Assembly: GCA_964604015.1 (NCBI GenBank)
Contig: CAZRXF010000012.1
Coordinates: 137,955 to 201,954, forward strand
Direction of reading: 5' to 3'
Length of the DNA stretch: 64,000 nt
Source of the DNA: an uncultured Pseudomonadota bacterium
Lineage (GTDB): Bacteria; Babelota; Babeliae; Babelales; CAIQNR01
Shown here piece after piece: positions 10,944 through 14,272 of this stretch. Position 1 is the first letter of the stretch; every line of letters begins with the position of its first letter. Position numbers and translations under genes: made by a program. The notes under the pieces were generated by a model. That model made no database searches. It was not told the origin of the DNA and saw only the letters and a list, made by a program, of their open reading frames with translations.

Positions 10944-11207
10944 TTATTTCTTTCTTGCTTGTACTTGTACTGCTTGTGTGCTGTTGTTAGTGATTTGCCA
11001 TTTACCTTTGATTCGTTTTGTTTTTCCGTTTTTTGTTCTTGTAGCTTGGGTCACTGTAACGCCGGCTGGTACTGTTGGTTGCGTTTTTGAATACACATAG
11101 GAAGTTCCACCTGGCTGTACGGTTACAGAGGAGTGCTTGTATTTAGCTTCTGAGGTTGCAGTAAATCCAAGAGCAAGAAGGGTAAGGGCAAGTAATTGTT
11201 TTTTCAT
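10944..11207 (-). CDS. Small exported protein (MKKQL family)
   Basis: Signal peptide MKKQLLALTLLALGFTATSEA is nearly identical in pattern to that of ORF 11567-12115. Followed by a hairpin plus T-run terminator. Confidence 0.55.
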   Translation of the reverse strand: MKKQLLALTLLALGFTATSEAKYKHSSVTVQPGGTSYVYSKTQPTVPAGVTVTQATRTKNGKTKRIKGKWQITNNSTQAVQVQARKK

Positions 11208-11232
11208 AGGTTTTAGTTTTTTTTAGGGGGTT

Positions 11233-11550
11233 TTAGTTTTTTGGTTCAACGACACGATATGGATGGGCTAGTGCCTCTCCTTTTTTACTTCTTTTGATCA
11301 TAAGTTTGACGGTACCTGGTTTTTCGCCATGAATCGTCCACAAGCGGCCACCCTTATTTTTGATGGTGACGATATCGGTCGACTCACCAGGAGCTACTGT
11401 TATTTCATGAGCATGTACACGAATGTCATGATCAACTTTTACAGGAGTTGCCCAGGCATTTTCTTCGTGATGTAAAAAGTTAGGCGTACACAAGGTAGTA
11501 TTTGCGTATGTTATCGCCCCAAGAACAAGAATACGTAATTGTTTGTTCAT
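11233..11550 (-). CDS. Small exported protein
   Basis: Internal ATG at 11550 (MNKQLRILVLGAITYA) is preceded by AGAGGA and begins just after the stop of the upstream gene. Shares a motif (PGTVKLMIKRSKKG) with PGTATVHIKKRRSG of the neighbour. Confidence 0.55.
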   Translation of the reverse strand: MNKQLRILVLGAITYANTTLCTPNFLHHEENAWATPVKVDHDIRVHAHEITVAPGESTDIVTIKNKGGRLWTIHGEKPGTVKLMIKRSKKGEALAHPYRVVEPKN

Positions 11551-11566
11551 TCTCGTTTCCTCTTTT

Positions 11567-12115
11567 TTACTCGTGATGACTTTCATGATGCATTACAACC
11601 GCATCATCTTCTTCCTGGTGTCCAGCATGATGTTTTGCGGTGCTTTCTTCGTCCGTGCTTACCATTTCGCTACGGTTGGGTTGTTTCTTTTTGCTCTTTG
11701 TTGTCTTTTGTTTTTTAGCCTTTTTATCAACTACCATACCTTCGTCGTTTGCTTTTCTCTTCTTTGATGCTCTTACTGTAATGACAGCAGGTTTGCAGTG
11801 GTGGTGAGCCTTGTCATGATCTTCTGAGTAACCGCTTCGTCTCTTTTTAATATGAACGGTTGCGGTACCAGGGTTTAAGTGCTTAAGGAGCCACACATCT
11901 TTTTTGGTTTCTTCTAGTTCCAAGACAGGTTGTCCTGCTACAGTCGGTGCTTCGTCTTCAATCCATATTGCAGTGGCATAGACAGTTTGAGTAGTGTCTT
12001 CAACCACATCTTTTTTAAACTTTCCCCATTCTGCCATGATGGCAACGCCCATCCCGTGGGAACTTGCAATATAGCCAAGACTAATGAGTGCGAGTGCAAA
12101 CAACTGTTTTTTCAT
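11567..12115 (-). CDS. Exported His-rich / Lys-rich protein
   Basis: Signal peptide MKKQLFALALISLGYIASSHG with GAAGGA SD. Basic tract KKRKANDEGMVVDKKAKKQKTTKSKKK, then His/acidic tail HHAGHQEEDDAVVMHHESHHE. Confidence 0.6.
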   Translation of the reverse strand: MKKQLFALALISLGYIASSHGMGVAIMAEWGKFKKDVVEDTTQTVYATAIWIEDEAPTVAGQPVLELEETKKDVWLLKHLNPGTATVHIKKRRSGYSEDHDKAHHHCKPAVITVRASKKRKANDEGMVVDKKAKKQKTTKSKKKQPNRSEMVSTDEESTAKHHAGHQEEDDAVVMHHESHHE

Positions 12116-12166
12116 GATTCTATCCTTCTTTTTTTAACGGTTTTAAGAACTTTTTTTAGTAGGAAC

Positions 12167-12643
12167 TTAGATTCCATCTTCTCCATCTCGAATTTTTCTC
12201 ACTCCGGTTTTATCGGTGGGGGATATGACCTCGACGACGTGTTCACATGGGGGCTTATTCTGATAAAACGAGGAGGGCATAAAACGAATGATATAAGTCC
12301 CGGGATGTGGAAAGGTGATCTCGTAGTATGGTTCAGGTTGATCATCTTCCTCCCCCTTCATAAGGATGGGGGTCTTGTTGTAGGGAATTGAGGTATCTTG
12401 TTTTCCTGGAACTTTCAAGAACACCTCGAAACCAACTTCAACTTTTTCGATGTCAGAAAAGGGATTAATGCACTGTTTGATGTGAAGAGTATCACCACAG
12501 ACCATCATTGCAGGGATTTCATCCATGTTAAAAGCATTGTAAATGACAGGCTGCACCGTAGATTTTTGTACGGGTGCGGGAAATGCAAGAGCTGCAACAA
12601 GCAGGAGGGAAACAATGAGTAAAAAGAGATGGTGCTTTTTCAT
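12167..12643 (-). CDS. Hypothetical exported protein
   Basis: Signal peptide MKKHHLFLLIVSLLLVAALA. ATG 12643 lies 6-7 nt after AAGGA that overlaps the upstream stop codon. Contains an INPF motif. Confidence 0.55.
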   Translation of the reverse strand: MKKHHLFLLIVSLLLVAALAFPAPVQKSTVQPVIYNAFNMDEIPAMMVCGDTLHIKQCINPFSDIEKVEVGFEVFLKVPGKQDTSIPYNKTPILMKGEEDDQPEPYYEITFPHPGTYIIRFMPSSFYQNKPPCEHVVEVISPTDKTGVRKIRDGEDGI

Positions 12644-12652
12644 AATCATTCC

Positions 12653-14272
12653 TTACTTTTCTTCTTCATTGACTTCATGAGAGGGGACTTGGTCGTGTTC
12701 GGCGGCTGGTTCCTCTTGCTCTTGCTTGTCTTGTTCTTCTAAGTCGGAAGCAAGGGAATCATTCGATTCGTCATCGGATGTTGTAACTTCTTCGGTGGGT
12801 GTTTTTAATGCAGATTCAGTTGATTCTTTTTCTTCTGCAGTTGCTTCTCCTGGAAGGTTTTCGTCAGCGCGTAAAAAGCTTGCGAGAGCGCCTTCTTGTT
12901 CAAGCGGAATAAGCGGCCCTTGCGGGTGTTCTGCAAGGTATGGAACTACTGATGTATGTTTTTCTTCTAAATCTTTTGATGGTTTAGTTTTTTCTTCCGT
13001 TGCGGTTTCTGTCTCAGTCGTACCTTTAACAAATACTGGCTGTTCAAATGTTTCTGTGCCTGTTGAATAGGTGATTGTCGTTTCGCCTGCTTTATGTGCA
13101 GTTAAAGAGACGGTCCATTCAGGTTTTTCTTTGCTTCCCTTAAACGAGAGGGTTACCCCAACAATGGCAGGATTTGCTGATTGCGCGCTGCCACCTGCAA
13201 AGCTGGAGAGAATTTTTGTTTCTCCGAGAAGGAGGGTAACAGGAGGATGCGTGGTGATCTTTTCAAGAACAGGTGGTTGAGGGAGCGCGAGGCTTTCACC
13301 CGTTTTGCTTGCTTCACTGATAACGTTGCGCAGATCATGCATGAACCCTTTGAAATGTTCTTGCATGGTGGCAAGGTACTGATCTTCTAGCATTTTTAAT
13401 TTTTCTACAGCTGACGAGGTTTGTTCTTCGGGAAATTGTGTGCCTTCCATTTCAGTAGGTGTGATGGTTACGTGATAAGCCGGTTGAAGGCTTTGAGGAT
13501 GAACGCCGGTTCCTTCAGCCTTAAAAATGGTGAATGATCCTTCATGTATTGTTGCTGGAATGGTGATCGTTTGTTCTGTTTTTCCGTGTATTACGGTTGT
13601 GGTCAGGTAAGAACTGTACTTTTTATCTTGGATAACATAGTGCATTTCTGCTTCATTACCGGTTAAAGGTGCGAGTTTTGCAGAATGGCCAGGAATAATG
13701 GCAAGTGTTGGAATTGACGCAGTGCGCTTGACCGTTGAAAGGTGCTCGTGTGAGGGCGTTGTTACAGGAAGAGACTTTTGAGTTACATGTGGTTCTGCGT
13801 GTTCTTCTGAATGAGACATTGGTTCGGTATCAAGATGAGATTCTGGGTGTGTTTCAGGTGACGACATGAAAGGATTTTCTGTGGTTGTGTCATGCTCTTC
13901 CACCTGTGCCGAATGATGAACTGTTTCAACGTGTGGCGCTTCGTCATGTCCTGAGGATGGTTCAGAAGCTGGAGTAGCAAAAGGATTTTCTTGTGCGTGA
14001 CTAGGTGCGATGGTTGGTTCATGCTCTTCGGTTGATGAAGCTACCGGACCAAATGGAGAGGCAACGGGTAATGAGCTTTCATGAGGGGGAGTTATGTGAG
14101 AGCTAGCAAAAGGGTTTTCTGTTGTCAGAGATGGGGCGCTAGATGGATGTGCAGAATCTGCATTAGAAGAAGCTGGTGGGGGAGCAAAACCAAACACTGG
14201 GTGAGAAGGTTTTATTTGGGTGCAAAAAAACGTCACAAAAGCCATACATAAGCTTATAATGCGCAACTTCAT
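12653..14272 (-). CDS. Large exported protein with His/Glu/Pro-rich ENPF repeats, two beta-rich domains and an acidic tail
   Basis: GGAGGG SD before the ATG and signal peptide MKLRIISLCMAFVTFFC. Three ENPF(A/M)(S/T) repeats in a low-complexity N-terminal half. C-terminal Glu/Asp-rich tail. Confidence 0.65.
   Translation of the reverse strand: MKLRIISLCMAFVTFFCTQIKPSHPVFGFAPPPASSNADSAHPSSAPSLTTENPFASSHITPPHESSLPVASPFGPVASSTEEHEPTIAPSHAQENPFATPASEPSSGHDEAPHVETVHHSAQVEEHDTTTENPFMSSPETHPESHLDTEPMSHSEEHAEPHVTQKSLPVTTPSHEHLSTVKRTASIPTLAIIPGHSAKLAPLTGNEAEMHYVIQDKKYSSYLTTTVIHGKTEQTITIPATIHEGSFTIFKAEGTGVHPQSLQPAYHVTITPTEMEGTQFPEEQTSSAVEKLKMLEDQYLATMQEHFKGFMHDLRNVISEASKTGESLALPQPPVLEKITTHPPVTLLLGETKILSSFAGGSAQSANPAIVGVTLSFKGSKEKPEWTVSLTAHKAGETTITYSTGTETFEQPVFVKGTTETETATEEKTKPSKDLEEKHTSVVPYLAEHPQGPLIPLEQEGALASFLRADENLPGEATAEEKESTESALKTPTEEVTTSDDESNDSLASDLEEQDKQEQEEPAAEHDQVPSHEVNEEEK

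Follow-up and report, generated by a model that had tools for sequence, protein, structure and literature searches.

Comparison with described systems

Immunoglobulin-like (Ig-like) proteins such as the Lig proteins of Leptospira and those of the invasin type evolve fast and mediate host contact. In the Vlp/Vsp proteins of mycoplasmas and the lipoprotein families of Borrelia, a conserved signal peptide is combined with a variable mature part. The NPF motifs of the vaccinia virus protein A36 show that pathogens can also copy a short eukaryotic motif. Here we describe a cluster of five co-directional open reading frames (ORFs) that has something in common with all of these. It lies on the minus strand of a 64-kb stretch of contig CAZRXF010000012.1, from an uncultured bacterium labelled as a member of the Pseudomonadota; the whole stretch is what we call the window. 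The five genes, A539, B158, C182, D105 and E87 (A to E for short), appear to encode exported proteins. Our tentative interpretation is that they form a lineage-specific, fast-evolving "secretome island" operon, the products of which may work together as a binding module, in the envelope or at the surface, that is aimed at another cell.

The Big-type surface proteins (LigA/LigB, invasin/intimin) resemble the largest product, A, in being exported and in carrying tandem Ig-like sandwiches with a G-x-(A/T)-x-I-T-type F-G signature, and LigA is among the Foldseek matches to the model of A (E-value 1.3e-4). Unlike these proteins, A has two domains split by a long helix, lacks an outer-membrane anchor, LysM, beta-barrel or Pfam Big domain, and is predicted to be disordered over more than half of its length. 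The best Foldseek match to A is SGBP-B from the mixed-linkage glucan locus of B. ovatus (E-value 5.5e-6, probability 1.0), which likewise consists of a surface-exposed chain of Ig-like domains. SGBPs, however, are lipoproteins encoded in polysaccharide-utilisation loci beside SusC/D, and here a lipobox, SusC/D and genes for glycan degradation are all lacking. With a root mean square deviation of about 14 Angstrom and a template modelling (TM) score of 0.1–0.15, A and SGBP-B have the domain type alone in common.

The likeness to the Vlp/Vsp and Borrelia families lies in the leaders. C, D, E and two mini-genes in a related locus share the leader MKKQLL..L.LG(Y/F).A(S/T), and the mature parts that follow it range from Ig-like to pure low complexity. 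In contrast to the mycoplasma and Borrelia families, no lipobox, phase-variation repeats or invertible elements were found. The leaders also differ at synonymous sites and can therefore not be the product of recent recombination.

A conserved and fast-evolving operon

Reading along the minus strand, A occupies positions 12653–14272 (539 amino acids from Met1), B 12167–12643 (alternatively 160 amino acids from 12649), C 11567–12115, D 11233–11550 and E 10944–11207. The spacers between them measure 9 (or 3), 51, 16 and 25 nucleotides. For D, both the public gene calls and the orthologue use the 105-amino-acid start, and neither supports a longer reading of 117 amino acids. The operon is closed by an intrinsic terminator (10914–10890, minus strand) with a 10-bp stem that includes 5 GC pairs, a 5-nucleotide loop and a T-run (TTTTAT); this hairpin is the sole minus-strand terminator-like site within the cluster. 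At the other end, the AT-rich intergenic region 14273–14506, which separates A from the divergent gene U362, presumably contains the operon promoter. The sigma-70-like matches in this region are weak (minus strand 14362–14334, 9/12) and do not exceed the shuffled expectation. The original prediction of a five-gene co-directional cluster with short spacers and a terminator at its end agrees well with these data. It had also placed a Shine-Dalgarno sequence before each gene. We see GGAGG/AGGA-type sequences upstream of A, B, C and D, but on inspection of the upstream sequence none that is clear before E.

The five genes are real: public assemblies call them, and nine related loci retain them as ORFs, a conservation that excludes non-coding or artefactual ORFs. 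The products are present in public collections as unnamed proteins. The cluster representative of A in the NCBI, JGI and ENA collections (P0002, 530 amino acids) starts at Met10 and so loses the basic n-region of the signal peptide. Met1 is the better start, since all orthologues begin with MKLR, MKVH or MKSR.

The cluster lies between tgt (the gene overlapping that of a Vut_1/YhhQ transporter) and a SpoU-type methylase gene, beyond which come genes for an amino-acid permease and a GT4 transferase and then gidA, lgt, dnaG and rpoD. The same arrangement is found in nine related loci that differ at the species level (L009/10, L012, L013/14, L015, L016, L017, L018 and L020), all from freshwater, wastewater and other metagenomes or metagenome-assembled genomes. 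Every locus contains the A-B-C core, and synteny holds down to 24–26% identity. Hence the five proteins, which had been proposed to be ORFans, are not so in the strict sense: the core has syntenic orthologues in at least nine loci. A search with the full length of A as query recovered no more than five relatives.

Around this core, the gene content shifts by duplication (B), fusion (C with D), presence or absence (D and E) and extra mini-genes (L020). D is found in the window and in L009, and L015 and P0024 have a version that is fused to C. E is present in the window and in L012, L013, L017 and L020, and an extra secreted protein, U, comes before A in four loci (L012, L013, L016 and L020). 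The proteins themselves diverge fast. Identity to the window is 24–42% for A, 16–38% for B and 26–59% for C, compared to 55–89% for seven flanking genes from the same genomes. The GC content of the cluster (0.42–0.45) equals that of the surrounding genome. Recent horizontal acquisition is unlikely, because the GC content matches the genome and the synteny is fixed. To judge from these comparisons, the locus is probably an old, vertically inherited, fast-evolving island and not a recent insertion.

Leaders that are conserved better than the proteins they lead

By a crude heuristic based on charge and hydrophobicity, all five products begin with two Lys/Arg residues followed by a hydrophobic core, which bears out the expectation of a signal peptide on each of them. 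Since 22 of the 52 genes in the window pass a similar test, the run of signal peptides is a property of the operon and not a statistical oddity. In A the signal-peptide-like segment covers residues 1–22 (MKLRIISLCMAFVTFFCTQIKP; 14207–14272, minus strand), contains a predicted helix (residues 3–18) and retains MKLR..SL in the orthologues. C, E and D start with MKKQL or MNKQL. The leaders of C and E show 63% identity across 19 amino acids (E-value 1.6e-4), a likeness that is kept in the orthologues, and the claim that three signal peptides of the M(K/N)KQL type are nearly superimposable stands. Seven of the 12 residues common to the C and E leaders are encoded by different codons. Hence the constraint acts on the peptide and not on the DNA, and the synonymous differences rule out gene conversion as the source of the shared leaders.

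Two mini-genes of L020 (12791–13353; 64 and 104 amino acids) consist of a C/E-type leader (MKKQLL..ALTLG) followed by low complexity only, which is acidic and ends in CCCD in one case and rich in Arg, Glu and Asn in the other. They look like signal-peptide "cassettes" that have received new cargo.

None of the five window proteins carries a lipobox ([LVI][ASTVI][GAS]C) at the end of its signal peptide, which rules them out as bacterial lipoproteins. The orthologues of E do have a Cys at residue 20–21; it is preceded by N or E at position -1, and matches to lipoprotein-leader families are sub-threshold.

Across the loci the leaders are the best-conserved segments of B, C and E: 91% identity in B, 80% in C (compared to 49% in the domain and 11% in the tail) and 79% in E (compared to 45%). 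This could mean that the leaders stay on the proteins. They would then be uncleaved signal anchors, or tags for dedicated sorting, of a periplasmic complex that is tethered to the inner membrane and has a housekeeping role in the envelope. The near-invariant N-terminus of B (MKKHHLFLLIV.LLLVA.LAFP), with its hydrophobic run of about 17 residues, is what one would expect of an anchor. So is the conserved hydrophobic stretch of C, which extends past the putative cleavage site (GVAIMA). Selection on the leader peptide, as seen in the codons of C and E, and the fixed position beside housekeeping genes fit as well. Nevertheless, there are AxA-like cleavage sites in B (SLA|FP), C (SHG|M) and E (SEA|K), and identities of 16–59% together with the gain and loss of members fit a housekeeping role poorly. 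We regard a tethered housekeeping complex as rather unlikely.

Protein A: two Ig-like domains and a disordered region with NPF motifs

The AlphaFold2 model of A, built from an alignment of six sequences, suggests that a signal peptide and a disordered region are followed by Ig-like domain 1, a long helix, Ig-like domain 2 and an acidic disordered tail. The first disordered region is rich in Pro, Ser, Thr, His and Glu (residues 23–184; 13721–14206, minus strand as for all features of A), with a predicted local distance difference test (pLDDT) score of about 30–38 and with 11% His and 15.6% Pro. Domain 1 (residues 189–270; 13463–13708) is modelled as a seven-stranded beta-sandwich at a pLDDT of about 88–92, and its mean identity among orthologues is 58%. 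A predicted alpha-helix of 40 residues (285–324; 13301–13420; pLDDT 82–89), which carries an insertion of 33 amino acids in the L015 orthologue, connects it to domain 2 (residues 345–416; 13025–13240; pLDDT 73–90; 60% mean identity), which includes SFAGGSAQS and GETTITYS. The tail (residues 420–539; 12656–13015) contains 29% Asp plus Glu and has a pLDDT below 50, except for a mini-helix at residues 462–467 (ALASFLRA). This mini-helix is conserved: orthologue tails keep a (P)FA(S/H/T)FL(K/R) element and the terminal Lys, which in A forms part of a conserved acidic-x-Lys C-terminus.

A Foldseek search of the PDB with the A model gave 56 matches at E-values of at most 1e-3, and all of the 50 listed are tandem Ig-like domains. 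Besides SGBP-B and LigA, they include the Ig-like domains of GH107, phage SU10, titin and the S-layer protein SbsC.

Conspicuous in A are the NPF motifs of the first disordered region. Three ENPF motifs occur there (14108–14116, 13979–13987 and 13868–13876), next to FGF and SPF, and nearly every Phe of the region sits in (N/S)PF or FGF. The three NPF compare to 0.026 expected by shuffling. Eight orthologues were examined in this way. The seven closer ones contain 3, 1, 4, 3, 2, 3 and 4 copies (0.02–0.07 expected), despite the surrounding sequence being only 34% identical. The most distant, from L018, has GPF, DPF and QPF in place of NPF, plus a region rich in Met and His.

Several NPF motifs spaced 20–45 residues apart within Pro/Ser/Thr-rich disorder are also found in the eukaryotic adaptors epsin, synaptojanin and Numb, and in vaccinia A36. 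One could therefore argue that A mimics an endocytic adaptor: its NPF repeats, and perhaps the acidic FxxFL mini-helix too, would be ligands of host EH-domain proteins (Eps15, intersectin or EHD-type), and A would be a surface-exposed or released effector that steers uptake or vesicle traffic. Retention of one to four motifs in seven species-level orthologues is consistent with this idea. The motifs also fall into predicted disorder, as do the NPF motifs of EH-domain ligands (PMC2238750). The source samples, freshwater and wastewater, are rich in protists, and both the many secreted ORFans and the queuine/preQ1-salvage-type pair of tgt and Vut_1/YhhQ genes would be compatible with host dependence.

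Unlike the eukaryotic adaptors, however, A is bacterial and looks Sec-exported. A Sec signal peptide delivers a protein to the periplasm, from where a route to the host cytosol is not evident. Among about 45 window proteins that were scanned there are no eukaryote-like domains and no sign of life with a eukaryote. Our literature search found no precedent for bacterial NPF/EH effectors, and the motif is replaced in L018. Spaced Phe residues in a Pro/Ser/Thr-rich region could equally serve self-association or the binding of partner Ig-like proteins. We consider adaptor mimicry by A quite improbable. The same low expectation applies to its extended form, in which A-type proteins recruit the EH proteins of a protist host, while the leaders of B, C, D and E, being hyper-conserved, serve as the tag for a dedicated route that sorts the Ig-like set to the host interface. 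If true, this uncharacterised lineage of bacteria would possess a kind of host-manipulation module that has not been described before.

The composition of the disordered regions allows for yet another explanation. They could form a periplasmic or surface metal "sponge", in which disordered regions rich in His and Glu (in one orthologue Met), together with a His/Cys loop in C, bind Zn, Ni or Cu on Ig-like scaffolds for buffering or acquisition. The original prediction had described beta-sandwich domains combined with His/Glu-rich low-complexity regions and suggested metal capture as a role. The combination is indeed there: His makes up 11% of the first disordered region of A and 10% of the tail of C, and the tails are 27–33% acidic. 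The L018 orthologue of A contains ...SMPSMDHSMMPAPSMNSMDEPMMDDHE..., which we take to resemble the Met-rich Cu-binding repeats of CopA/PcoA, and in the C family an H-x-C-x-H motif with an almost invariant His precedes the last strand.

Metal capture gains slight backing from these features, but they are variable. In the window and five other orthologues (L017, L020 and L018 are not among them), the His content of the first disordered region of A ranges from 0.5% to 12.6%: four of the five others lie at 6–12.6%, while L015 has 0.5% His and 2% Met. The Cys of the C motif is Ala in the subgroup L012/L017/L020, and there is no second conserved ligand upstream. The elements that do keep their position in the disordered regions are Phe motifs (NPF and FASFL), not His or Met, and the neighbourhood contains no metal transporter or regulator. 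Although metal binding could account for the composition, we doubt that it is the function of these proteins.

One small family, C, D and probably E, and two unrelated proteins

The model of C, built from ten sequences, predicts a signal peptide, the conserved GVAIMA segment, one Ig-like domain and a disordered tail rich in Lys, His and Glu (19% Lys). The domain (residues 31–120; 11756–12025, minus strand) has seven strands and a pLDDT of mostly 85–95, with a low-confidence loop (55–61) at about residues 91–110; outside the domain the model is disordered. Foldseek returns weak, generic Ig-like matches only (best E-value 0.012). An exhaustive search of 1.84 billion representative proteins with a hidden Markov model (HMM) of the C family gave 17 matches; about 14 are genuine, all of them 128–205 amino acids long and of the same build, and three outliers are repeat proteins.

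Relations within the cluster were assessed with hhalign, using profiles built from orthologues and reversed-profile controls, which gave E-values of at least 0.06. Judged by these profiles, D is a homologue of C (probability 96.8%, E-value 3.1e-10, 60 columns), a small exported paralogue of the C domain, and the two form a single ORF in L015 and P0024. E, a small, exported-looking and very basic protein (net charge +14), is a probable distant relative that shares the signal peptide of C (probability 62.5%, E-value 7.3e-5, 48 columns). No significant relation of A-Ig1, A-Ig2, B or U to C, D, E or one another was detected (all E-values above 0.007). As no relation of A and B to the others or to each other could be detected, the cluster is not one expanded family of five members. 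C, D and probably E are one family that includes the leader, whereas A and B are two separate families, A sharing the general fold only.

The expanded family of small beta-sandwich proteins that had been proposed from the sequence alone is thus reduced to C, D and probably E. The PGT..IK motif noticed in two members reflects the homology of C and D, and the similar strand pattern in the large protein A turns out to be the generic F-G strand signature of Ig-like domains. The beta-sandwich fold itself is supported by the models of A (two domains) and C (one domain), and for D by its homology to C. In these models A 189–270, A 345–416 and C 31–120 are predicted to be of the Ig-like class, with two sheets, about seven strands and 70–100 residues.

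B is an apparently exported or membrane-anchored protein with a conserved C-terminal IR-x-GD(D/N) motif. Its orthologues are found in all loci; in L009 and L013 it is duplicated in tandem within one ORF. It matches nothing in Pfam or in a profile search of PDB sequences.

The claim that the five belong to no known sequence family has held up: none of them scores above cutoff in Pfam or NCBIfam, nor do the orthologues of B, D, E and U. Even at E-values of up to 1, Pfam Big_1, Big_2 and Big_3 match neither the five nor their orthologues, and there are scattered sub-threshold matches to assorted beta-sandwich families. Profile searches of PDB sequences with alignments of A, B, C, D and E and with U362 yielded nothing but a match of C to plant eL28 (E-value 0.001, 22 bits). 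We judge it to be a chance match, because the confident model of C is Ig-like and there is no eL28 among the 50 Foldseek matches listed; a Pfam Ribosomal_L28e match is absent, too. GOLD/p24 was matched by one orthologue (P0031, 23.4 bits, cutoff 25.9), partly over a coiled-coil-like tail, and was set aside because it appears neither in other members nor in Foldseek. The match of E to Bd0108 (NF053838) covers residues 1–35 only, at 19.2 bits (cutoff 40) and an E-value of 1.3e-3, and none of four E orthologues shows it.

A cupredoxin is also not what we see in C. Foldseek matches to plastocyanin, pseudoazurin and amicyanin have E-values of 0.064–0.16, no better than those of other Ig-like proteins. 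H-x-C-x-H is the only part of the copper site present; in the 22-sequence C alignment its Cys is lost in seven, and neither an upstream His nor a downstream Met is conserved. A chaperone-usher or pilus operon is ruled out by the lack of usher, chaperone, sortase and pilus-assembly genes in any of the nine loci.

Small exported Ig-like proteins could also be inhibitors akin to chagasin or ecotin, shielding the envelope from the proteases of a host or prey. C, with an Ig-like domain of about 90 residues, resembles the chagasin family in this respect. Its Foldseek matches include the Entamoeba protein EhICP2 (E-value 0.057), one orthologue (P0024) has a sub-threshold Pfam match to Inhibitor_I42 (E-value 0.06, 14.1 bits, cutoff 27.2), and C has an NPGTA loop. 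The loops that define chagasin/I42, however, namely NPTTG (L2), GxGG (L4) and RPW (L6), are absent from the 22-sequence C alignment, as the original prediction had said of the inhibitor motifs it looked for. NPGTA sits in a late hairpin rather than in the early L2 loop, the weak Pfam match aligns to a different part of the profile, and EhICP2 is one of dozens of equally weak Ig-like matches. An inhibitor function therefore appears highly improbable to us.

Neighbouring genes

Divergent from the cluster lies U362 (14507–15595, plus strand), an ORFan with a signal peptide and one NPF (GENPFRF), which is not kept in the L009 orthologue. The space between tgt and A is variable among the loci, with U448 in L009 and U148/U175/U162 on the other strand in L012, L013, L016 and L020. 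The gene tgt itself (377 amino acids) overlaps that of the Vut_1/YhhQ-type transporter by 4 nucleotides (15656–17481, minus strand), a pairing kept in all relatives. We take this pair to suggest salvage of queuine/preQ precursors, as in some host-dependent bacteria.

Further away, the region 37769–41719 (plus strand) contains ORFs with signal peptides (138, 109, 196 and 613 amino acids) that are rich in Ala, Ser, Gly and Asp and have a GC content of 0.50–0.52, compared to 0.44. The 196- and 613-amino-acid proteins end in a two-lobed hydrophobic hairpin resembling that of chlamydial Inc proteins. A Pfam scan of the proteins of 138, 196 and 613 amino acids gave no match. Three contiguous giant ORFs (1564, 884 and 1197 amino acids) with overlapping stop and start codons occupy 48702–59637 (minus strand); two look as if they had signal peptides, and none matches Pfam or NCBIfam. 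In total, about a quarter of the genes in the window have no Pfam match, and many of those look secreted. No rRNA or tRNA genes were found in the window.

RpoD (235–2451, minus strand) is unusually long at 738 amino acids and scores 543 bits against the NCBIfam RpoD equivalog cutoff of 555. For AtpD, Bacillus-type, Fusobacterium and chloroplast sequences give higher scores than those of E. coli, Acinetobacter and Paracoccus, and the proteobacterial label is therefore doubtful. RpoD and AtpD together hint at a lineage outside the well-sampled Proteobacteria.

What the module may do

Of the explanations considered here, we put a binding module first for three reasons. Where the disordered regions are conserved, they hold peptide motifs and not metal ligands; bacterial surface binders (SGBP-B, LigA and SbsC) are found among the structural neighbours of A; and divergence, duplication, fusion and loss are typical of contact proteins. 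Conserved short motifs inside otherwise unconserved disorder are, in addition, typical of sites of protein-protein interaction.

In such a module all five products would cross the inner membrane by means of their Sec-type signal-peptide-like segments, in a cell that, given the presence of lgt, lspA, mlaE/F and murB, has a diderm context. They would then act jointly in the envelope or on the cell surface. A could be an extended stalk that presents conserved short motifs (the NPF repeats and the FASFL helix) and charged tails, and B, C, D and E might be small partners or accessory binders, C with a modelled Ig-like domain and D with one expected from homology. The target would most likely be another cell, be it a host, a prey or a neighbour. 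This would explain the rapid divergence and the turnover of genes. Host-surface binding, the other role suggested in the original prediction, is plausible.

There are several points that weigh against a binding module and keep us cautious. Neither the cluster nor its immediate surroundings contain an outer-membrane anchor, a canonical lipobox, an autotransporter or a gene of a secretion system. The Foldseek matches are generic, hence the fold does not specify a function. The models cover A and C and rest on shallow alignments (six and ten sequences), and the fold of D is inferred solely from its homology to C. Finally, the fast divergence could also reflect relaxed constraint on disordered, non-essential periplasmic proteins.

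In sum, the sequence families are new but their fold is familiar, and they come in an arrangement that is both unusual and conserved. At least three new protein families are defined (A, B and C/D/E), all of them outside Pfam and NCBIfam, and their models could be deposited as an aid to annotation. Should the more mundane explanation be true, with these being generic periplasmic Ig-like proteins, then the value of the finding is mainly annotational. Even so, the locus has its oddities: the leaders are far better conserved than the mature parts that follow them, an exported bacterial protein carries an NPF array of eukaryotic type, and the gap between two housekeeping genes is a "hot spot" at which small secreted Ig-like proteins duplicate, fuse and vanish. 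If, on the other hand, the proteins do act on another cell, then this uncultured lineage from freshwater and wastewater would have in the operon a compact module for cell contact that is conserved and nonetheless evolves fast.

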